A DNA stretch of 64,000 nt, taken from the NCBI GenBank assembly GCA_043825875.1, contig JBDRRF010000057.1, positions 1 through 64,000 of the forward strand. The letters are read 5' to 3'. The notes beneath the pieces were generated by a model. It did not search any database. It worked only from the letters and a program-made list of their open reading frames with translations, and was not told the DNA's origin. Source of the DNA: Pseudomonadota bacterium. Lineage in GTDB: Bacteria; Desulfobacterota; Desulfobacteria; Desulfobacterales; RPRI01. Made by a program: the position numbers and the translations under genes. Positions within the stretch are counted from its first letter, which is position 1, and the number at the start of each line of letters is the position of its first letter. This document shows positions 7,968-36,788 of the stretch, piece after piece.

Positions 7968-10256
7968 TTATTCTTCAGAATCATCTAAAGCCAAAGCAAA
8001 TGCATTCATGGCGCTGGCGTCATAATACCGTCCGTCATAGTATGCAATCCGGTGCCACCCGTTAAATGCCTTTGCATAAACATACAGATGTTCTGCAAAC
8101 GCTGCATTCGTACATGGCCCAAGAAGTGTTCCTACAGAAATGGTTTGTTCAAAATCACCGTCATTTAAATTTGTATAACCTCCGGAATAAAGAACGCTTG
8201 ATACCTCTTCATAGCTCATACTCATTCCCATACCGCTCGGATCGGTATCCCCGCGTTGCAAAGTAAAACTGACAAGAGCATTGTTTCCCGGATGAGTTGC
8301 ATGAAAAGAGATTTTGACATTATCTCCCTCATCATAATACAGAAAACCGCATCCGAATGTTTCCTGAGGAACTCCGCCAACAACCGGTATATCAATGGAC
8401 GCCGAACAGGAGCGATTATCAATGGCGAGGTTGAAGATAAATCCATCCCCATCCTGATAAGCGCTCGGAGCTAAAATGGTCTCAGTGGCTTCCGTAGTTG
8501 AATCCGTAGTACTTGGCATGATAAATTCGAACTTTGGATTTGCGATATAAGGCTTAACAATGTTACCTGCTGAATTATATACTTCAATTTTTACCTGATA
8601 TAATCCATGAGCAGTATTTATTCCTCCCGGAAATCCGTTAGTATTCAGATAGCCGGCATACAAATCAGATCCGAACCAGGTCTCATCAGGCCATTGATCT
8701 TTAGTTTGATCCAGGCTGTTATCAAGCTCGTAGGGAGTGTCCGGCCTGAAACGATATAAATGCATTCCGTTTACAGGAAAAGATCCAAGGGATACCGTCG
8801 GATAGGTGATTTTATTATTTTCTTCATGGATATAATGCCGGGTAACCGGTTCACAGGATTCGAACCATTCTCCTGTAGTGCCTTTTCTATATTGTATGCG
8901 GTAATAGTAGACATCATTATTGGGTATATTGTTGCTTCGTCCCATTCTAAATCCCAGGTAAGTGCCAAAAGGCGCATTTTGAAACTGGTGCCCGTTATAG
9001 GAATAAGAAATCGTACCATCGGCATTGTTGATATCAAAAAGATTAACACCGCCAATTCCGTGGGGCTCAACCCAAGTATAAACTCCGGCCGGTGGATCAA
9101 TATTGTCATCATAGGAAACCTTGGCTCCGGGTTCTTTCGTTACCAGAAGGACATCCGTACCACACGCATAATTCCAATAGACATGGCAGCGCATCCCCGG
9201 GTCATACAATGTCACCCAGTTTCCATCAATACATTGATAGGCTGTAAAATACAGATCCGGTTTATCACCACTGCAAAGATAATATATATCTCTTTCAAAA
9301 TAGCCTTCCGCATCGGTACAGGTGCAGGTTAAAAAATCCTTATGCAGATATGAGTATATCCATTGGAAATGGCATAAATACGGAATGAGAAGTTCCGCTT
9401 TTGCAAGCATTTCTCTTCTCAAAGAAACCATTGACTGGGCTGTGAAAATCGAATCCAGCTCCTGCCTTTTTTTCTGCCTTACCGAAATTTCCATATCGGC
9501 TGAAAAACTGGATTTGTTTCTCAAAATCTCCTGCGGCTGGTTATATTTCGGTTGAATACGAGGTGTGTCGACAAACTGCCACGGGTCAGGGTCCGGCGGC
9601 CATGGTTCCGGCGGCCATTTTTCTATAACACGAATAAGGTCATCCCTGATTCTTAAAAGTTCACGTTCAGGCAATTGCTGAAGAATCAAATACCAACGGT
9701 CAACCTCCCAAATAAAGATACATGCCTGGTAAACCCCCATCTTCTTTATTGTGCCGTCCGGCAGTTCCATCTCTTTAACAAGACGGCCTTTCACGGTGCA
9801 TCGGCAGAAAATCCATTTCGCAACTACTTCCTTTTGAAGAATGATATCCTTGTCTATGCTTGCCTGGTTCAACCGGACTTTTGCTTCAATACCTCCTTTG
9901 GAAAGAAGCCGTTTGGGAGTTATCGATGGTTTGGGTTTGGAGCCGTTTGGCAGTTTTTTTGCGATACAAAGCTTATCGTCCATCTCGCTTATATCTAACT
10001 GAGGCCCTACAATCACTCGTACTTTATCATTAATCCTTTGGTTTTTGATATTAAACTCTACTCTTTCTCCTTTCTTATCACGGACCGGCTTTACATCCAC
10101 CAGACGGTTTTTCGAATCAAAAGCGTATACCATTATATTCGGCATATCTTCCATATCGAGTTGTGGAACCGATACATTCAGCCTGAGTTTAAACTCAGCC
10201 CTCTCCGCTTTAATTGGTTTGGCCGACAATCTACTACTTCCTTTACTTCTTTCCAT
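7968..10256 (-). CDS. Large hypothetical protein (762 aa) with Pro-rich linker and beta-rich C-terminal half
   Basis: Long ORF with AGGAGG SD; WPPEPWPPDPDPW; TDAEGYF motif; no family recognised. Confidence 0.8.
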   Translation of the reverse strand: MERSKGSSRLSAKPIKAERAEFKLRLNVSVPQLDMEDMPNIMVYAFDSKNRLVDVKPVRDKKGERVEFNIKNQRINDKVRVIVGPQLDISEMDDKLCIAKKLPNGSKPKPSITPKRLLSKGGIEAKVRLNQASIDKDIILQKEVVAKWIFCRCTVKGRLVKEMELPDGTIKKMGVYQACIFIWEVDRWYLILQQLPERELLRIRDDLIRVIEKWPPEPWPPDPDPWQFVDTPRIQPKYNQPQEILRNKSSFSADMEISVRQKKRQELDSIFTAQSMVSLRREMLAKAELLIPYLCHFQWIYSYLHKDFLTCTCTDAEGYFERDIYYLCSGDKPDLYFTAYQCIDGNWVTLYDPGMRCHVYWNYACGTDVLLVTKEPGAKVSYDDNIDPPAGVYTWVEPHGIGGVNLFDINNADGTISYSYNGHQFQNAPFGTYLGFRMGRSNNIPNNDVYYYRIQYRKGTTGEWFESCEPVTRHYIHEENNKITYPTVSLGSFPVNGMHLYRFRPDTPYELDNSLDQTKDQWPDETWFGSDLYAGYLNTNGFPGGINTAHGLYQVKIEVYNSAGNIVKPYIANPKFEFIMPSTTDSTTEATETILAPSAYQDGDGFIFNLAIDNRSCSASIDIPVVGGVPQETFGCGFLYYDEGDNVKISFHATHPGNNALVSFTLQRGDTDPSGMGMSMSYEEVSSVLYSGGYTNLNDGDFEQTISVGTLLGPCTNAAFAEHLYVYAKAFNGWHRIAYYDGRYYDASAMNAFALALDDSEE

Positions 10257-10660: not shown

Positions 10661-11902
10661 TTACTGGCCGGTACCGGTATTTTCCAGTACGAATGTCCCG
10701 GCGGCAATTTCATGGTCAAGCTCTGTTAGTGCGCGACGCATCTGCTTTAATGCCTGTTTGATCCTGTTTTCGTTCTCCACCAGCGCAAGACGCAGGTAAC
10801 CGTCCCCCTCTTCTCCAAAACCAGCGCCTGGAGCAACCGCAACATTTGCCCGGTTCATCATTTCCACCGCAAACCGAACTGAACCCATCCGGGCATACGG
10901 TTCAGGGATAGCAACCCAGAGAAACATACCGGCCTTTGGCACCTGTACAGTCCATCCCATACGGATTAGTCCATCGCAAAGTACATCGCGGCGTTTCTGA
11001 TAAACCGTTACCTGCTCTTTAATACTATCGTCGCAGTCGCGCATTGCAACAATTCCGGCCACCTGAATCGCAGAAAAGATTCCGTAGTCATAATAACCCT
11101 TGATCTTGGCAAGCCCCTCGATCATTTCCTTGTTGCCGACACAGTATCCGAGACGCCAACCGGCCATGTTGTAAGATTTGGAAAAAGAGCCGAACTCCAC
11201 TCCGACATCAAGCGCGCCGGGAACTTCGAGAAAACTGGGAGCCACATACCCGTCATATGTGATCATAGAATAAGCAAAGTCATTTATCACCATGAAGTTA
11301 TACTCATTGGCAAGCTTGACGATCTCTACGAAAAATTCCTTCGTTGTGACTATCCCAGTCGGATTATGGGGATAGTTTAACATCAACAGCTTCGGTCCGG
11401 GATACAGGGCCTTGCACATGGTTGTAAGCTGCCTTAAGAAATCCTCCTCCGAGCCAAGGGCAATCCGCAAAACGCCTGCACCTGCGATCACCGCAGCATA
11501 AACATGAATCGGAAATGCTGGTGCCGGAACAAGGACGGTATCGCCCGGACCAAGTAGAGCAAGGCATAGATGCGAGATCCCCTCTTTTGAGCCTATGGTA
11601 CAAATCACATCATCAACTCCGTTTAAGGAGACATTGTAATGGCGCTCATAATAAAGAGCTATCTCGCGTTTAAGGTTTTTCATGCCTCCGGCTACCGGAT
11701 ACCTGTGGGTCTTCGGGTCAATCGCAACGTCACAAAGTTTTTCCGTCACCTGTTTCGGGGTAGGATCGATGGGATTGCCCATGCCCAGATCAATCACATC
11801 ATCTCCACTCCAGCGTTTTTCCATCTTTATCTTATTGATCATCCCGAACAGATAAGGCGGTAGCTGGTTCATGCGATCGGCAAAACGAATTTTATTTTCC
11901 AT
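10661..11902 (-). CDS. alaC: PLP class I/II aminotransferase, AlaC (glutamate-pyruvate aminotransferase) type
   Basis: LPPYLF, IDLGMGNP, IGSKEG, PIHVYAAVIAGA, SKSYNMAGWR, IPEPYARMGS, ALVENENRIKQA closely follow E. coli AlaC as I recall it; DapL-type not fully excluded. Confidence 0.75.
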   Translation of the reverse strand: MENKIRFADRMNQLPPYLFGMINKIKMEKRWSGDDVIDLGMGNPIDPTPKQVTEKLCDVAIDPKTHRYPVAGGMKNLKREIALYYERHYNVSLNGVDDVICTIGSKEGISHLCLALLGPGDTVLVPAPAFPIHVYAAVIAGAGVLRIALGSEEDFLRQLTTMCKALYPGPKLLMLNYPHNPTGIVTTKEFFVEIVKLANEYNFMVINDFAYSMITYDGYVAPSFLEVPGALDVGVEFGSFSKSYNMAGWRLGYCVGNKEMIEGLAKIKGYYDYGIFSAIQVAGIVAMRDCDDSIKEQVTVYQKRRDVLCDGLIRMGWTVQVPKAGMFLWVAIPEPYARMGSVRFAVEMMNRANVAVAPGAGFGEEGDGYLRLALVENENRIKQALKQMRRALTELDHEIAAGTFVLENTGTGQ

Positions 11903-11967
11903 TCTTTTATCCCCATTCAAGTTTTATTAAGTAAGACGCACACCAAAGCCGTTGGCAGATAGGATAT

Positions 11968-12000
11968 AACAAAAAACCCGAACCATTTTCCGATCCGGGC
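11968..12000 (-). terminator. Intrinsic terminator in the alaC 5' leader (candidate attenuator)
   Basis: Minus strand GCCCGGATCG-GAAAA-TGGTTCGGGT followed by TTTTTGTT, about 65 nt before the alaC ATG. Confidence 0.8.
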
Positions 12001-12076
12001 AAATAAACCACAGACCGGAGTTTCGGCCCATGGCATTCAGTCTCTTTTTATAATTGTATAGAAAAGCAGCTGAACG

Positions 12077-12130
12077 TCAATGGACCCCAAAGGCCAATGC
12101 CGCCGCTGCACATATATGATTTTTCTTCAT
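12077..12130 (-). CDS. Putative alanine-rich leader peptide MKKNHICAAAALAFGVH
   Basis: 17 codons with GCA GCG GCG GCA TTG GCC; AGGGA SD-like motif 7 nt upstream; lies between a promoter-like motif and the leader terminator. Confidence 0.7.
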   Translation of the reverse strand: MKKNHICAAAALAFGVH

Positions 12131-12221
12131 CTTTTGTTCCCTGTTTGTTTTCTCTTTAACCGTATCTTATCTAAAAGCATGTGCCTGAAAATTGTTCATT
12201 TTAAGATAAGATAGTCTGAAA

Positions 12222-12250
12222 TTCGTAGCAAGATAAGCCATATGTGTCAA
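12222..12250 (-). promoter_or_regulatory. Possible sigma-70 promoter for leader-alaC
   Basis: TTGACA-17 nt-TACGAA; the -10 is imperfect. Confidence 0.45.
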
Positions 12251-12309
12251 GATAAAATGACAGCAGGTTAGGGGGAAACCCCATTCAATTCTTTGCAGCT
12301 ATAGCATTA

Positions 12310-12651
12310 CTATTCTTCATCATCTTCAATTGCGCCACCGACTGTATCTATAATTACTGTGTGGCACTCGAAATCAAACCATTCATTAAATGTTTTTTTA
12401 TTTCTATTTTTTGGCCAAAGAGATTCATCTGTATACCAGCCTTCCAATTCATTCTCGAAAAGCATTTTGAAATTCAATGAAACCCATTTTCCAAAATTCT
12501 CTCCTTCTTCAACAGTTATTAAATATACAGTTCGATCTTCATTGGCGCTTTCCAATGTTATTTCCTTGTGATCTTCATACGGATCAGCTTCATTAATCCA
12601 CCGCACAAAGGGTTCTTTATATTTTAATATAATTGCGGCTCTATTTATCAT
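12310..12651 (-). CDS. Hypothetical acidic protein, integron cassette 4
   Basis: Likely start MINRAAIILK at 12651; the longer listed ORF reads through an attC. Confidence 0.75.
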   Translation of the reverse strand: MINRAAIILKYKEPFVRWINEADPYEDHKEITLESANEDRTVYLITVEEGENFGKWVSLNFKMLFENELEGWYTDESLWPKNRNKKTFNEWFDFECHTVIIDTVGGAIEDDEE

Positions 12652-12672
12652 TTTATTATTCCTATTTGAGTA

Positions 12673-12776
12673 AGATAATGTTGCTGGTGAGCAGCAACCC
12701 AAATAAGTGCCGACCTGCACAGCCTTCACGTAAAACCGCAATCTCCACGCCGTCTGCTCCACTATCTTGGTTAAAT
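12673..12776 (-). mobile_element. attC site with degenerate R'
   Basis: ATTTAAC..GTGGAGCAGACGGC....GTTGCTGCTCAC..aacATTATCT; its R'' ATTTAAC is complementary to GTTAAAT at the start of the same cassette. Confidence 0.75.
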
Positions 12777-12782
12777 ACCGCC

Positions 12783-13086
12783 CTAATTCAGAACTGCGAG
12801 CAAAATGAACAAGAGCAAATTCACTATTATGGACATTTTGCAGATTGTAATAATTTGAGTCGTCTTTTTTGCGGCTGTGTCGCCCGTTGCATGATACAAT
12901 TTTTTCAGATCGTCTTCAGCATAAAGGCAATTTGTTATCCAAATGTAGCTCTCCTTGTAAGATTTTTTTCCCATGTTTGTTCATTAAAATAGGAGTAATC
13001 ACAAAATAGCATACCCCGTATCCGATTAGGAAAGATACGAAAAACAAGAAAAGACTTATGAAGATCAAATATCCATAAATATTCAT
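12783..13086 (-). pseudogene. Frameshifted small two-TM membrane protein, cassette 3
   Basis: MNIYGYLIFISLFLFFVSFLIGYGVCYFVITPILMNKHGKK joins SYKESYIW...LLAVLN* if one A is removed from the A7 run at 12963-12969. Confidence 0.65.
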
Positions 13087-13769: not shown

Positions 13770-14339
13770 TTATGAGTCACATGTTTGATATTCTATTTCG
13801 TCACCCACGAAACCAATGAACACCCAAAGGCTTGCCTTGGTGGTCGGTTCAAAACAGACTTCCCAGTGTTTGGGATCATTTTTCCAATGTTCATGATCCA
13901 ATGATAGACCAGTTAACTCAAATTGATCTCTAACAGGGAGTTCAGGATCGAGATATTTTCGCTCCTTACAAACAACCCGTAATGTTTCCTCACACGAATT
14001 CCAGATTTTTTCGAGATCATGTTTTTTGGATAGCAAGAATTTTTTAGCTTCAGGGTATGGCCCTTCTGGAGTGCCTGGAATTGAGCTGAAACCCAAACGC
14101 GCTTTATGCTCAGGAATGTCGATATCATGATCAGTCTGCCAAATGCCGGTTTCTTCTCCATCGTAAGTGATTTCTCCAAACTTAGGATCAATTATTTTTG
14201 AAATTATTGAAGAGGAATTGACTTTGGGAAACAATACTTCTTTGATGTTGTCACCATCGCAAACTATATATTTTAAAACGAAATAGCCTACGATTGAGAT
14301 TGTGGAAATGACTATTAGTGCTGCGCTTAATGACGACAT
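13770..14339 (-). CDS. Membrane-anchored hypothetical protein, cassette 1
   Basis: N-terminal TM helix; bounded by GTTGGAC and GTCCAAC. Confidence 0.75.
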   Translation of the reverse strand: MSSLSAALIVISTISIVGYFVLKYIVCDGDNIKEVLFPKVNSSSIISKIIDPKFGEITYDGEETGIWQTDHDIDIPEHKARLGFSSIPGTPEGPYPEAKKFLLSKKHDLEKIWNSCEETLRVVCKERKYLDPELPVRDQFELTGLSLDHEHWKNDPKHWEVCFEPTTKASLWVFIGFVGDEIEYQTCDS

Positions 14340-14351
14340 TATTCTTTCTCT

Positions 14352-14385
14352 GTCCAACAATTAGTATACGTTATACATATTTTAT
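14352..14385 (-). mobile_element. Putative attI-like site heading the cassette array
   Basis: TATAACGTATACTAATT-GTTGGAC core with no attC palindrome upstream. Confidence 0.45.
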
Positions 14386-14541: not shown

Positions 14542-16281
14542 ATGTTCGGATGGTGCGGTAAAATACTTAAAATAGATCTTGGGACAAAAAGATTTAAAGC
14601 CATTACTCCCGATCCTGATATTCTGACAAAGTTTATCGGCGGAAGAGGTCTTGCGGGATATTTTCTTAAAGAACATATCACTCTTAACTGGGATGATCCT
14701 GATATGCCCATTCTATTTTTTACCGGCCCTCTTGCAAATACTACATCTCCTTTTTCAGGTTTTATAAATATCATGTCCCGCTCTCCGCTTACAGGAACTG
14801 TCGGCGATGCATCCGTTGGAGGAGATTTTGGAACCCAGCTTAAAAAAGCAGGATTTGACGGAATCATAATTACCGGCAAATCCGATACGCTTTGTGGTAT
14901 AGAAATTCATAACAGTAAAGTAAATATCTCTTCCGCTGTTCACATGGCACAAATGCTTACAGGCAAAACCTCATTATTATTAAAAGATAAGGGCTCAAGC
15001 GCTGTAATCGGACCCGCAGCAGAAAACGGCGTTTTATTTTCAAATATCATTTTTGACAGCAATATTGCCGGATGCAGAAACGGGCTTGGGCTTTGTTTTG
15101 CGGCAAAAAACCTGAAATACATTACTGTTAAAGGTACAAAGAAAACAAAGATATCCGATAGCAAACAACTTGAAAAATCAAAAGAAGATATCTTAAGATT
15201 GGTTTCTGCTTCTCCCGTACTTTCAGGCAATTTCGGGATTTCAAAATTCGGGACAGCCGCTCTTTTTGATCTTATAAATGACAGACGCATGTTGCCAACA
15301 GATAATTTCAGGCATACTTATTTTAAAGACGCACATTTGCTTAATGCACCTTTATTAAAAAAATTATACTCCCCAAAAGACAAGAGCTGCCCGGAATGCA
15401 ATATCATGTGCAAAAAGATTATGCGAAACGGCACAAGCATACCGGAGTTTGAAACTCTTTCGCATTTTTCCGCATTAATCGGCAATACCGATATCAAAAC
15501 TGTTATTTCTGCAAATAAATTCTGCAATGAAGCAGGGATGGATACAATTTCAGCAGCATCAACCATTGCTTGCTTTTCGGAAATTAACGAGAAAAAACTA
15601 AACCCTTCTGAAATATTAAATCTTCTTTCAGATATAGCTAGTAAAAAAGGAGAAGGCAAATTACTAAGTCTTGGCGCTGCAAGATATGCAAAGATGAGGG
15701 GTTGTCCCGATATTGCAATGGCAGTAAAAAACCAGGAGCTTTCTTCCTATGACCCGCGCGGAGCTTATGGCATGGCTTTGGCCTATGCTGTTTCTACAAG
15801 GGGAGGATGCCATTTGAGCGCATACCCGGTAAGCTATGAAATATTAAGAAAGCCTGTGGCAATAGACCGTTTTAGCTTTGAAGGAAAGGCAAGAATAATA
15901 AAAAACAGCGAAGATTTAAATGCCGTAGTCGATTCACTTGCAGTATGCAGATTCGTATTTTTTTCAGCTTCCATGGAAGAATATGCCGGTGTTTTCCATG
16001 CGGTAACAGGCATAAACTTAACAGCCAATGAATTAATAAAGGCAGGAGAACGTATTTGCTACAATGAGCGCATGATGAATGCTGCAAACGGCTTTTCGGC
16101 AAAAGACGACGATCTGCCTTCCCGTTTTTTTAATTCTTACGGCTATAAAGGATCTGATATTAATATAAGTCCGATTGACCGTAAAAGTTTTTTTAAAGCA
16201 AGAACAAATTATTACAAGGCACGAGGTCTTGATAAGAAAGGATTGCCCGTTGCCGAAACCGTACAAGAACTTGGGCTTTAA
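14542..16281 (+). CDS. Aldehyde:ferredoxin oxidoreductase family (W/Mo-pterin) protein
   Basis: FIGGRGLA, SPLTG, IGPAAEN, CxxCxxxC, MDTIS, YDPRG, RGGCHL. Confidence 0.92.
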   Translation: MFGWCGKILKIDLGTKRFKAITPDPDILTKFIGGRGLAGYFLKEHITLNWDDPDMPILFFTGPLANTTSPFSGFINIMSRSPLTGTVGDASVGGDFGTQLKKAGFDGIIITGKSDTLCGIEIHNSKVNISSAVHMAQMLTGKTSLLLKDKGSSAVIGPAAENGVLFSNIIFDSNIAGCRNGLGLCFAAKNLKYITVKGTKKTKISDSKQLEKSKEDILRLVSASPVLSGNFGISKFGTAALFDLINDRRMLPTDNFRHTYFKDAHLLNAPLLKKLYSPKDKSCPECNIMCKKIMRNGTSIPEFETLSHFSALIGNTDIKTVISANKFCNEAGMDTISAASTIACFSEINEKKLNPSEILNLLSDIASKKGEGKLLSLGAARYAKMRGCPDIAMAVKNQELSSYDPRGAYGMALAYAVSTRGGCHLSAYPVSYEILRKPVAIDRFSFEGKARIIKNSEDLNAVVDSLAVCRFVFFSASMEEYAGVFHAVTGINLTANELIKAGERICYNERMMNAANGFSAKDDDLPSRFFNSYGYKGSDINISPIDRKSFFKARTNYYKARGLDKKGLPVAETVQELGL

Positions 16282-34427: not shown

Positions 34428-36788
34428 ATGGATCAACAGCAATCACCGTTTGATTTAAAAACAGAGAAACTTCCTGAAATTCTTCCGGTCCTTCCTTTGT
34501 TTGATAATTTGCTTTTTCCAAAAATGGCTTTACCTCTTGTAGTAATGCAGGCAGAATCTATTCAGCTTGTTGACGAGGCAATGTCTACAGACCGCATTAT
34601 AGGCCTTATTGCCTCCAAAAAACCCGGCACCGAGCCTTATAATCCGCAGGAGGATCTTTACACTTTTGGAACAAGTGCCATAATATTACGAATGGCAAAG
34701 TCTTATGATAACAGCACCCAGCTTCTTGTCCAGGGACTTGGAAGATTTAAAGCAATAGAATACATGGAAGGAAAGCCTTATCTTAGAGCAAGGGCAGAAT
34801 ACATACTGGAGAAAGAACCAAAAGGCAAAGAAACACAGGCTCTTGTCGCAAATATGCTAAGCCTTTTTTCAAGAATAGTTGAGCTTACGCCCGGTTTGCC
34901 GAAAGATACTGCAAATATGGCCAAATCGATTCAGGAACCGGGAATACTGGCCGATATGGTAGCTTCGATTATGAATACAACCTTAGAAGAAAAACAAAAA
35001 ATAATTGAAACAGAAGATGTACGCAAAAGATTAAAAGAAGTTACCAGGCAGGCCACACATCATCTTGAAATCCTCGAGCTTGGGAACAAAATACAAACCC
35101 AGGTTAAAGGGGATATGGAAAAAGGCCAGAGAGAATATTATTTGAGGCAGCAGCTTAAAGCTATAAAAGAAGAACTGGGGGAAAAAGACGATACCAATGT
35201 GGAAGTTGAGGAGTACAAAACCAAGGTAAAGGAGAAAAATCTGCCTCCCGAAGCGCTTAAAGAAGCCGAGCGTGAATTAAACCGCCTTTCGCGCATGCAT
35301 CCGTCATCTGCCGAATATACTGTGGCATCAACTTATCTTGACTGGCTTACAACTCTTCCCTGGAATGAAAGTACAAAAGATAATCTTGATATAAAGAAAG
35401 CAAAAAAGGTTTTGGATGAAGACCATTTCGGGCTTGAAAAGGCAAAAAAGCGTATCATTGAGTTTCTTGCTGTACGAAAATTAAAACCCGAATCAAAAGG
35501 ACCAATCCTTTGCTTGGCAGGCCCGCCGGGAACAGGCAAAACATCTCTTGGCAAATCAATAGCAAGAGCGCTTGGACGCAAGTTCATACGCATATCATTA
35601 GGAGGTGTCCATGATGAAGCCGAGATCAGGGGACACAGACGCACATACGTTGGGGCTCTTCCCGGACGTATTATTCAGGGAATTAGAACCGCCGGCGCAA
35701 ATAATCCGATTTTCATGCTTGATGAGATAGACAAAGTAGGAAGCGATTTTCGCGGTGATCCTTCATCAGCACTTCTTGAAGTACTTGATCCTGAACAAAA
35801 CTTTTCGTTTTCCGATCATTATCTTGATGTTCCTTTTGACCTTTCAAAAGTTATGTTTATAACAACGGCAAACGTTCTTCACACAATACCGCCTGCATTA
35901 AGAGACAGGATGGAAGTCCTTGAGCTTTTGGGATATACGGAAGAAGAAAAACTTAAAATAGCTAAGCGCTACCTTATTCCCCGCCAGCGTGAAGCTCACG
36001 GTCTTAAATCCGGACATATAGTATTTTCGGACGGAGCAGTTAAAAAAGTCATCTCCGACTATACGCGTGAAGCAGGCTTGAGAAATCTTGAAAGAGAATT
36101 GGCGACAATATGCAGAGGGGTTGCAACCAGCATTGCCGATGAATCTGTAAAAAAAGTTGAAATCACGGCACAAAATATATCAAAATATCTTGGACCCGAA
36201 CGCCGATATCCTGAAGTTCTTACAAGAACAGCCACGCCAGGAGTTGCTACAGGTCTTGCGTGGACTCAGGCAGGCGGTGAAGTGCTTTTTGTTGAAGCTA
36301 CTGCCATGAAAGGAAAAAGGGGCCTGATCCTTACAGGTCAACTCGGCGATGTTATGAAAGAATCTGCTACAGCCGCTTTAAGTTTTATAAGATCAAACGC
36401 AAAGCTATTGGATATCGATGAAGAATATTTTGAAAACAATGAAATCCATATCCATGTTCCTGCTGGCGCAATACCCAAAGACGGTCCTTCGGCAGGCGTT
36501 ACAATGCTTACAGCTTTATATTCCCTGCTAAAAAACAAACCTATAGAAAAATATCTTGCAATGACCGGTGAAATTACTTTAAGAGGATTGGTGCTCCCTG
36601 TGGGAGGAATAAAGGAAAAGGTTCTTGCAGCACACAACATTGGAATAAAAACCATCATTTTGCCAAAATGGAATGAAAAAGATCTTTTTGAAGTTCCCAA
36701 AAAAGTGCAAAAAGCAATTAAGTTTCACTTTGCAGATAAAATGATAGATGTTTTAAAAATCGCAATTAAAGATAACAACCTTAAATAG
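34428..36788 (+). CDS. lon: ATP-dependent Lon protease
   Basis: GPPGTGKT, DEAEIRGHRRTY, PKDGPSAG; GGAGG SD before ATG at 34428. Confidence 0.97.
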   Translation: MDQQQSPFDLKTEKLPEILPVLPLFDNLLFPKMALPLVVMQAESIQLVDEAMSTDRIIGLIASKKPGTEPYNPQEDLYTFGTSAIILRMAKSYDNSTQLLVQGLGRFKAIEYMEGKPYLRARAEYILEKEPKGKETQALVANMLSLFSRIVELTPGLPKDTANMAKSIQEPGILADMVASIMNTTLEEKQKIIETEDVRKRLKEVTRQATHHLEILELGNKIQTQVKGDMEKGQREYYLRQQLKAIKEELGEKDDTNVEVEEYKTKVKEKNLPPEALKEAERELNRLSRMHPSSAEYTVASTYLDWLTTLPWNESTKDNLDIKKAKKVLDEDHFGLEKAKKRIIEFLAVRKLKPESKGPILCLAGPPGTGKTSLGKSIARALGRKFIRISLGGVHDEAEIRGHRRTYVGALPGRIIQGIRTAGANNPIFMLDEIDKVGSDFRGDPSSALLEVLDPEQNFSFSDHYLDVPFDLSKVMFITTANVLHTIPPALRDRMEVLELLGYTEEEKLKIAKRYLIPRQREAHGLKSGHIVFSDGAVKKVISDYTREAGLRNLERELATICRGVATSIADESVKKVEITAQNISKYLGPERRYPEVLTRTATPGVATGLAWTQAGGEVLFVEATAMKGKRGLILTGQLGDVMKESATAALSFIRSNAKLLDIDEEYFENNEIHIHVPAGAIPKDGPSAGVTMLTALYSLLKNKPIEKYLAMTGEITLRGLVLPVGGIKEKVLAAHNIGIKTIILPKWNEKDLFEVPKKVQKAIKFHFADKMIDVLKIAIKDNNLK

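Follow-up and report, generated by a model that had tools for sequence, protein, structure and literature searches.

A candidate alanine-sensing leader-peptide attenuator directly upstream of an AlaC-like aminotransferase gene in Desulfobacterota

In the hisL leader of Escherichia coli and Salmonella, a short upstream open reading frame (uORF) with a run of cognate codons is combined with three successive hairpins, and two alternative pairings exist between neighbouring arms; stalling of a ribosome on the run releases the segment that follows, and the switch propagates to the terminator. New amino-acid leaders are reportedly still being found, the polycysteine uORF attenuators of mycobacteria (bioRxiv 10.1101/834739) being one example. 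The present analysis concerns the region upstream of a class I/II aminotransferase gene in a 64,000-nt stretch of DNA (hereafter, the window, meaning this whole stretch), which comprises positions 1 to 64,000 of contig JBDRRF010000057.1 of the assembly GCA_043825875.1 (Desulfobacterota; Desulfobacteria; Desulfobacterales; RPRI01). An initial annotation, made from the letters alone, had proposed an alanine (Ala)-dependent attenuator at this place, and the results presented below indicate that the region very probably contains a transcription attenuator of the ribosome-mediated leader-peptide type, with charged alanyl-tRNA as its signal and one aminotransferase gene as its target.

Two alanine-related leaders have been described. 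According to the available part of PMC10274678, the mycobacterial whiB7 uORF, which the authors themselves call an 'Ala leader', has an Ala content of 25–40%, encodes most amino acids, and controls a downstream intrinsic terminator through its translation; the leader senses alanine starvation among other stresses, and WhiB7 leads to a higher expression of aspC, encoding an alanine aminotransferase. The available part of PMC8079986 reports a predicted alanine-dependent leader peptide, alaL, before alaS of Streptomyces lividans TK24, which is 22 aa long, contains 6 Ala residues and is stated there to be new. The initial annotation, which was aware of no characterised alanine leader-peptide attenuator, has to be corrected with respect to these two precedents; it stands in that the full-text literature searched, which covers few subscription journals, contained no account of an Ala leader immediately preceding a gene for an alanine aminotransferase. 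The regulation of alanine synthesis is poorly understood compared with that of Trp, His, Leu and Thr, and with an Ala leader acting in cis, alanine would join the classical set of attenuated pathways.

Anatomy and conservation of the leader

The initial annotation had listed a promoter-like motif, a uORF preceded by a Shine-Dalgarno sequence, a hairpin A, a terminator B and the aminotransferase gene, and all of the claimed elements are present, within 1–2 nt of where they had been placed. The design is amended by a further hairpin, hairpin 0, formed by the Ala run and the 3' part of the uORF. All coordinates of the leader elements and of the aminotransferase gene refer to the minus strand of the window, and the elements are as follows:

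12222..12250, minus strand: putative promoter-like site found by sequence inspection, with TTGACA at 12250-12245, a 17-nt spacer and TG-n-TACGAA at 12227-12222
12163..12213, minus strand: perfect 10-bp inverted repeat (12213-12204 / 12172-12163) with a 31-nt spacer, between the putative promoter and the uORF, found by sequence inspection
12077..12130, minus strand: leader uORF, from ATG at 12130 to TGA at 12077, 17 codons and a stop, encoding the peptide MKKNHICAAAALAFGVH
12098..12109, minus strand: Ala run of four codons (GCA GCG GCG GCA), the proposed stall site
12066..12112, minus strand: hairpin 0, formed between the Ala run and a stretch made up of the 3' portion of the uORF and the adjoining sequence, with segment S1 enclosed (-18.0 kcal/mol; single-sequence folds)
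12080..12086, minus strand: segment S1, GGUCCAU, the final two sense codons of the uORF, whose partner is the 5' arm of hairpin A (12031-12025; minimum-energy fold)
12036..12076, minus strand: middle hairpin, stacking under S1:S2 in the read-through fold (from folding)
12001..12034, minus strand: hairpin A, the predicted first terminator, with a stem-loop at 12034-12007 (11 pairs) and a U-rich tail TTATTT at 12006-12001 (terminator scan)
11970..12000, minus strand: hairpin B, the predicted second terminator, with a stem-loop at 12000-11976 (10 pairs) and a tail TTTTTT at 11975-11970 (terminator scan)
11989..12019, minus strand: alternative helix S3:S4, the 3' arm of hairpin A (12019-12007) with the 5' arm of hairpin B (12000-11989; from folding)
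10661..11902, minus strand: class I/II aminotransferase of 413 aa (Pfam PF00155), AlaC-like subfamily, with ATG at 11902, the proposed regulated gene

The uORF of the window contains a fifth Ala codon at 12094-12092, and the aminotransferase start codon lies 68 nt past hairpin B and its tail. Both hairpins of the initial annotation were recovered, but hairpin A, presented there as a mere hairpin, has a U-tract as well, so that the locus carries two predicted terminators in tandem. The terminator scan of 1.4 kb revealed four sites, including hairpins A and B, compared with 1.4 ± 1.2 in shuffled sequences, and the fold of the 191-nt leader was more stable than those of 200 of 200 shuffles (z = -3.56). 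The promoter-like motif was confirmed in part: TTGACA, TACGAA and TG are conserved in the two loci of the same genus, L002 and L003, with a varying spacer, but the site was absent from the output of a consensus promoter scan. The inverted repeat downstream of it could be a 5' mRNA stem-loop or a protein operator; a shorter inverted repeat of another sequence occupies the matching place in L003.

With hairpin 0 included, the leader has six segments, as in the his operon design, comprising S0 (the Ala run), S1, the arms of hairpin A (S2 and S3) and the arms of hairpin B (S4 and S5), with the pairings 0:1, 2:3 and 4:5 opposed to 1:2 and 3:4. With no ribosome on the leader, or with a ribosome reaching the stop codon, S1 would be paired or covered, hairpins A and B would form, and transcription would terminate at them, ahead of the gene; a terminating ribosome would cover S1 because the stop codon directly follows this segment. 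When Ala-tRNA is scarce, a ribosome would stall on the Ala run, which would be the signal, hairpin 0 would melt and S1 would become free to pair with S2; the released S3 would then pair with S4, neither terminator would form and the aminotransferase gene would be transcribed.

The distribution of the leader was assessed upstream of aminotransferase orthologues, defined by E-values of at most 1e-150 (63–96% identity). Such an orthologue is encoded by 70 of 401 genomes sampled from the window's order, and 69 upstream regions were used, a partial match in genome G225 having been excluded. The uORF pointed out in the initial annotation proved to be conserved: a uORF no longer than 45 codons that contains a run of four or more Ala codons is located within 400 nt upstream of 42 of these 69 orthologues, while dinucleotide shuffling, repeated 100 times, yielded 0.13 of 69 on average and never more than 2; none of the 24 genes examined for the 50%-identical paralogue is preceded by such a uORF. 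Twenty-four leaders were used to build a covariance model, the structure of which is composed of hairpins A and B only. The model matches 46 of the 69 loci; in three of these (L042, L052, L054) the Ala-rich peptide is interrupted, and a fourth (L062) has the hairpins alone. A scan of named genomes, partly overlapping with the order sample (e.g., the leader of L179 is that of L004), gave 77 loci; the model found the leader in 42 of them, and 40 of these 42 have the Ala-run uORF, mostly belonging to Desulfobulbales isolates and metagenome-assembled genomes. No Ala-run uORF was detected in the 35 named loci lacking a model match, four of which have less than 200 nt of upstream sequence. The carriers include Desulfobacterium sp. 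N47 and a group of cultured organisms suitable for direct testing, namely Desulfogranum marinum DSM 2058, D. japonicum DSM 18378, D. mediterraneum DSM 13871, Desulfobulbus rhabdoformis DSM 8777 and D. elongatus DSM 2908. The arrangement of the leader elements, shared by many related sulfate-reducing bacteria, is real and far beyond chance, and chance is excluded by the comparison with relatives rather than by the window alone.

The window's own genome contains a single full copy of the Ala leader, and a model search of 151 genomes of the phylum, only four of which besides the window's own belong to the window's order, revealed no further one. Two matches of this search were rejected: L097, a full-length match with seven Ala codons after a formate-dehydrogenase-like operon, was attributed to chance, having no ATG start and an unrelated downstream gene, and L100 resembled an ordinary terminator. 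A different conserved upstream stretch, beginning with MAAA or MAVA and ending with a hairpin and a U-tract, is shared by three orthologue loci without the Ala-run leader (L040, L049, L050) and may represent another kind of leader before the same gene.

The reading frame of the uORF is conserved. An ATG open reading frame in the GCN frame, covering S1 and ending before hairpin A, is present in 78 of the 82 distinct model-defined leaders, compared with 3 and 5 for the other two frames; the four leaders without it are L031, L126, L109 and L144. Ala accounts for 28% of the leader-peptide residues and forms the longest homopolymer in 79 of 79 uORFs. The run comprises four to seven Ala codons in 77 of these 79 uORFs (four in 21, five in 35, six in 20 and seven in 1), and the other two have runs of two and three. 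All four Ala codons are in use (GCG 189, GCC 125, GCA 56 and GCT 21), and the Ala runs of the window and its 90%-identical relative L003 differ at third positions only. The peptide is 17–38 aa long across the family and varies freely outside the Ala run, except for the codons overlapping S1, which often encode V-H (GUCCAU). The uORF would be translated in this frame.

Covariation and folding of the switch

Covariation was counted in a 44-sequence alignment, which had been fitted to hairpins A and B only and not to the alternative pairing. The two terminator hairpins are paired in 89.8% of cells, compared with 31–50% when slid, and 8 of 21 pairs are changed on both sides; the values for the individual family helices are 88.3% for hairpin A and 91.6% for hairpin B, where 5 of 10 pairs are changed on both sides. 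The alternative S1:S2 and S3:S4 helices are paired in 80.6% of cells, compared with 26–45% when slid, with 12 of 23 pairs (61 cells) changed on both sides, and none of 500 shuffles equalled either the paired percentage or the covariation score. For the S1:S2 helix (columns 28–39 with 102–114), 82.4% of cells are paired and two-sided changes occur in 8 of 12 pairs; for the S3:S4 helix (columns 121–131 with 148–158), the values are 78.5% and 4 of 11 pairs. For example, one position in the 5' arm of hairpin A, occupied by U or C, co-varies both with the base it pairs with in S1 and with the one in the 3' arm of the hairpin, and columns 31 and 111 change from G-C to A-U in one family. Covariation thus demonstrates the mutually exclusive pairing of the switch.

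In the window, the minimum-energy fold includes the pairing of GGUCCAU (12086-12080) with AUGGGCC (12031-12025), exactly as written in the initial annotation, and the second alternative helix, proposed there as TCCGGTC with GCCCGGA, exists as well, but in a slightly different register (12019-12007 with 12000-11989). The two conformers of the window leader are nearly isoenergetic (-50.7 kcal/mol for the terminators and -51.0 kcal/mol for the alternative). Folding with ribosome footprints masked, which is an equilibrium model only, gave a probability of terminator B of 0.97 in the free RNA, 0.99 with the ribosome at the stop codon, and 0.21 and 0.11 with the ribosome stalled on the second and the fourth Ala codon, respectively, in line with the read-through logic suggested at the outset.

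Hairpin 0 is predicted in each of the 44 aligned leaders folded individually (-17 to -36 kcal/mol), with S1 buried in it. A hairpin at the place of the middle hairpin was also seen in L003, L004 and L005. A U-rich tail, counted as at least five U in the next 8 nt, follows hairpin A in 35 of 44 leaders, hairpin B in 35, both in 26 and at least one of them in all 44.

In seven leaders of one genus of family f19 (L065, L066, L077, L084, L085, L087, L091), hairpin B has no U-tract and hairpin A is followed by 7–9 U. In this genus, hairpin A would terminate transcription alone, and hairpin B may serve only as a partner for the 3' arm of hairpin A.

The proposed target gene, sibling leaders and rival explanations

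The best NCBIfam match of the window aminotransferase is the alanine transaminase model NF006033 (AlaC, an equivalog), with 499.3 bits, which does not reach the cut-off of 647; the scores on the DapL models are 440–461 bits, all of them also below the cut-offs (e.g., TIGR03540, 440.4 vs. 593.25). A gene on contig C83 of the window's own genome, of 43% identity, passes the DapL cut-offs (626.6 vs. 593.25), and the DapL function is therefore covered by another gene. In a maximum-likelihood tree of 40 rows, the orthologue clade (100/99) and the AlaC-like paralogue clade (98/98) are sisters, joined with 98/100 support, and DapL lies outside; the enzyme therefore groups with the AlaC-like paralogue and not with DapL, in agreement with the AlaC-type assignment of the initial annotation. 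The closest solved structure is 2x5d, an uncharacterised 'probable aminotransferase', and close relatives bear the automatic name 'alanine-synthesizing transaminase' in the Joint Genome Institute (JGI) annotation. An alanine-forming activity of the window enzyme is inferred.

The search of the 151 phylum genomes also showed that the hairpin half of the model matches other leader-peptide attenuators, the matches spanning the hairpin part of the model only. Peptides with Trp runs precede TrpB-like genes (e.g., L096, L099, L104) and trpE (L103), a Leu/Val-rich peptide lies upstream of leuA (L098), and a Phe/Tyr/Trp-rich peptide upstream of another aminotransferase gene (L102). The window's own genome contains a leader of the same tandem-hairpin design on contig C18 (L095:1381-1582; hairpins at 36459-36540), where the Tyr/Phe-rich uORF MNTITGRFYGFYYYYFSTGLPALR precedes a gene for 2-amino-3,7-dideoxy-D-threo-hept-6-ulosonate synthase (ADH synthase), an enzyme of aromatic amino-acid synthesis. 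These leaders resemble the Ala leaders in having tandem GCCAYGGG-type hairpins and U-tracts after a short uORF, and are unlike them in having other codon runs and other downstream genes (TrpB-like, trpE, leuA, ADH synthase and another aminotransferase). The codon runs of the sibling leaders are cognate to the pathways encoded downstream; the Ala run would likewise report alanine and the enzyme would contribute to the alanine supply, and for both of these this is the best indirect argument. The GCCAYGGG-type stem was observed in both hairpins of L096, L098, L099 and L101–L106, in common with the Ala leaders; common descent and some shared factor are both possibilities for its conservation across specificities.

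Several observations weigh against an alanine-sensing attenuator. A search for RNA sequencing runs that contain the stretch gave no such run, the output being three metatranscriptome runs of a single study with almost none of its sequence words. The Shine-Dalgarno sequence claimed initially is present in the window, but the match is weak (AGGGA), and a Shine-Dalgarno-like 4-mer precedes only 40 of 79 uORFs. By the covariance model, 23 of the 69 orthologue loci of the order sample lack the leader, as do 35 of the 77 named loci, including the four with short upstream sequences. The opposite strand passes the Ala-run uORF test in 31 of 69 loci, because (GCN)n reads as Ala both ways, and the strand assignment therefore rests on the U-tracts, the frame of the open reading frame and the gene. 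The covariation of hairpin 0 is ambiguous (65.4% paired vs. 54.0% and 49.2% when slid by 3 columns), since the GCN repeat, with its 3-nt periodicity, also pairs when slid by 3, and hairpin 0 therefore rests on the single-sequence folds. In masked folding of the family, from which L042 and L054, having no run of three Ala codons, were excluded, only 15 of 42 leaders have a stall state where the probability of each terminator is under 0.5, and hairpin B stays formed in many. An internal promoter-like site, TTGACG-16-TACAAT (12080-12053, minus strand), which at 10/12 is the closest sigma-70-like match in the region, covers part of the middle hairpin and the stop codon of the uORF and, if active, would give transcripts without S1; it is weaker in L002 and L003 and was not seen in L004 and L005, leaders from other families. 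As for the enzyme, the window protein lies under every curated NCBIfam cut-off, and its 50%-identical paralogue on contig C116 scores 641.8 bits on the alanine transaminase model, i.e., nearer to AlaC than the window protein; for these two reasons, the substrate is unproven.

The internal promoter-like site could be cited in favour of another explanation, in which hairpins A and B act only as a tandem pair of terminators, either for the upstream gene (12762-12310), past which they lie by 310 nt, or for a small RNA transcribed from this site, and the Ala-run uORF is incidental GC-rich sequence, the GCN repeat being one arm of a hairpin. Promoter-like sites are, however, no more frequent in the region than in shuffles (2 vs. 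3.4), and the upstream genes differ among L001, L002 and L003 while the leader remains joined to the aminotransferase. Together with the conservation of the ATG frame (78/82) and the covariation of S1:S2 and S3:S4, this makes such an origin very improbable. Much the same can be said of a switch set without a stalled ribosome, by a ligand-binding riboswitch, a T-box-like contact with tRNA or an RNA-binding protein on hairpin 0: the conservation of two alternative folds and the high stability of hairpin 0 would be compatible with it, but no conserved unpaired pocket is seen, an open reading frame and a codon run in one frame being conserved instead, and an Rfam cmscan of 11500-12800 at E-values up to 10 gave no leader-family match, the only hits being mir-944, rliG and Ysr197 at chance level (E 1.3–5.2), far under the gathering scores. 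We consider this mode of control highly doubtful.

The remaining explanations accept the uORF and differ in what is sensed. The attenuator would answer to the position of the ribosome, not to alanine as such, and the available part of PMC10274678 describes responses of the Ala-rich mycobacterial whiB7 uORF to many amino-acid and translation stresses. A general translation-stress sensor of the whiB7/erm type, where any slowing of the ribosome (by antibiotics or shortage of several amino acids) results in read-through and alanine is not the specific signal, seems unlikely nevertheless: the run of four to seven Ala codons is the sole conserved feature of the peptide, the sibling leaders of the same design match the amino acid of their downstream genes, and the regulated gene is an AlaC-branch aminotransferase and no resistance or stress gene. 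It is extremely improbable that the poly-Ala peptide is itself the product, acting as a functional micropeptide or a nascent-chain arrest peptide; its length and Ala run are conserved, but those residues that are conserved outside the run (e.g., V-H) fall on segment S1 of the RNA, the rest of the peptide varying freely. An attenuator reading the charging of alanyl-tRNA remains the preferred explanation, and sequence analysis supports the interpretation of the initial annotation in every respect that it can address.

Possible transfer between lineages and comparison with known systems

The aminotransferase gene is present in only 3 of 17 genomes of the window's genus, and the DNA flanking the leader and the gene differs among these three carriers. 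The window protein is 80–90% identical to proteins of Desulfobulbales and Desulfocapsaceae, compared with 63–72% for other families of its own order, and nests within a Desulfobulbales clade in the tree (100/97). The leader and the aminotransferase gene thus look horizontally acquired. The flanking genes in the window are the following:

7968-10256, minus strand: open reading frame of 762 aa with no Pfam match
12310-12762, minus strand: upstream open reading frame of 150 aa with no Pfam or NCBIfam match
13770-14360, minus strand: open reading frame of 196 aa with no Pfam match
14542-16281, plus strand: aldehyde ferredoxin oxidoreductase gene

A broader picture, to which we would give an even chance, can be drawn for Thermodesulfobacteriota (Desulfobacterota). 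The phylum would use one modular chassis of paired GCCAYGGG-type terminator hairpins, fitted with Ala, Trp, Leu/Val and Phe/Tyr leaders; the Ala version would be the first alanine attenuator to act in cis, directly on the gene of an enzyme that forms alanine, and would mark a distinct, starvation-inducible transaminase subfamily; and the leader and gene would move as a cassette between orders, the window's genus apparently having acquired them from Desulfobulbales. The leader would also give a functional context to an aminotransferase subfamily that the curated models cannot name, since the leader says 'alanine' and similarity says only 'AlaC or DapL-like', and it would represent a compact natural switch responsive to alanine.

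Among the described systems, the whiB7 leader is similar in combining an Ala-enriched uORF with an intrinsic terminator and in belonging to a circuit that raises an alanine aminotransferase; as far as the available part of PMC10274678 describes it, its uORF is longer and it controls a transcription factor acting on aspC in trans. The Desulfobacterota leader, in contrast, has a run of four to seven Ala codons in cis, directly before an aminotransferase gene (PF00155), and occurs in a different phylum. The predicted alaL, as presented in the available part of PMC8079986, differs in being located before the alanyl-tRNA synthetase gene, in having no long Ala run and in having been proposed from an RNA-seq annotation.

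The closest parallel in architecture is hisL, with which the Ala leader shares a uORF with a cognate codon run and the his-like six-segment layout. There is no similarity in sequence or at the level of models, as the Ala leader has no match to an Rfam leader family, and it differs from hisL in having Ala instead of His codons, two hairpins with U-tracts, and one aminotransferase gene instead of an operon. The mechanism is a textbook one, and the gain lies in scope and annotation, not in principle: the Ala leader is very probably a leader-peptide attenuator of the known trpL/hisL kind, with a new amino acid and a new target.

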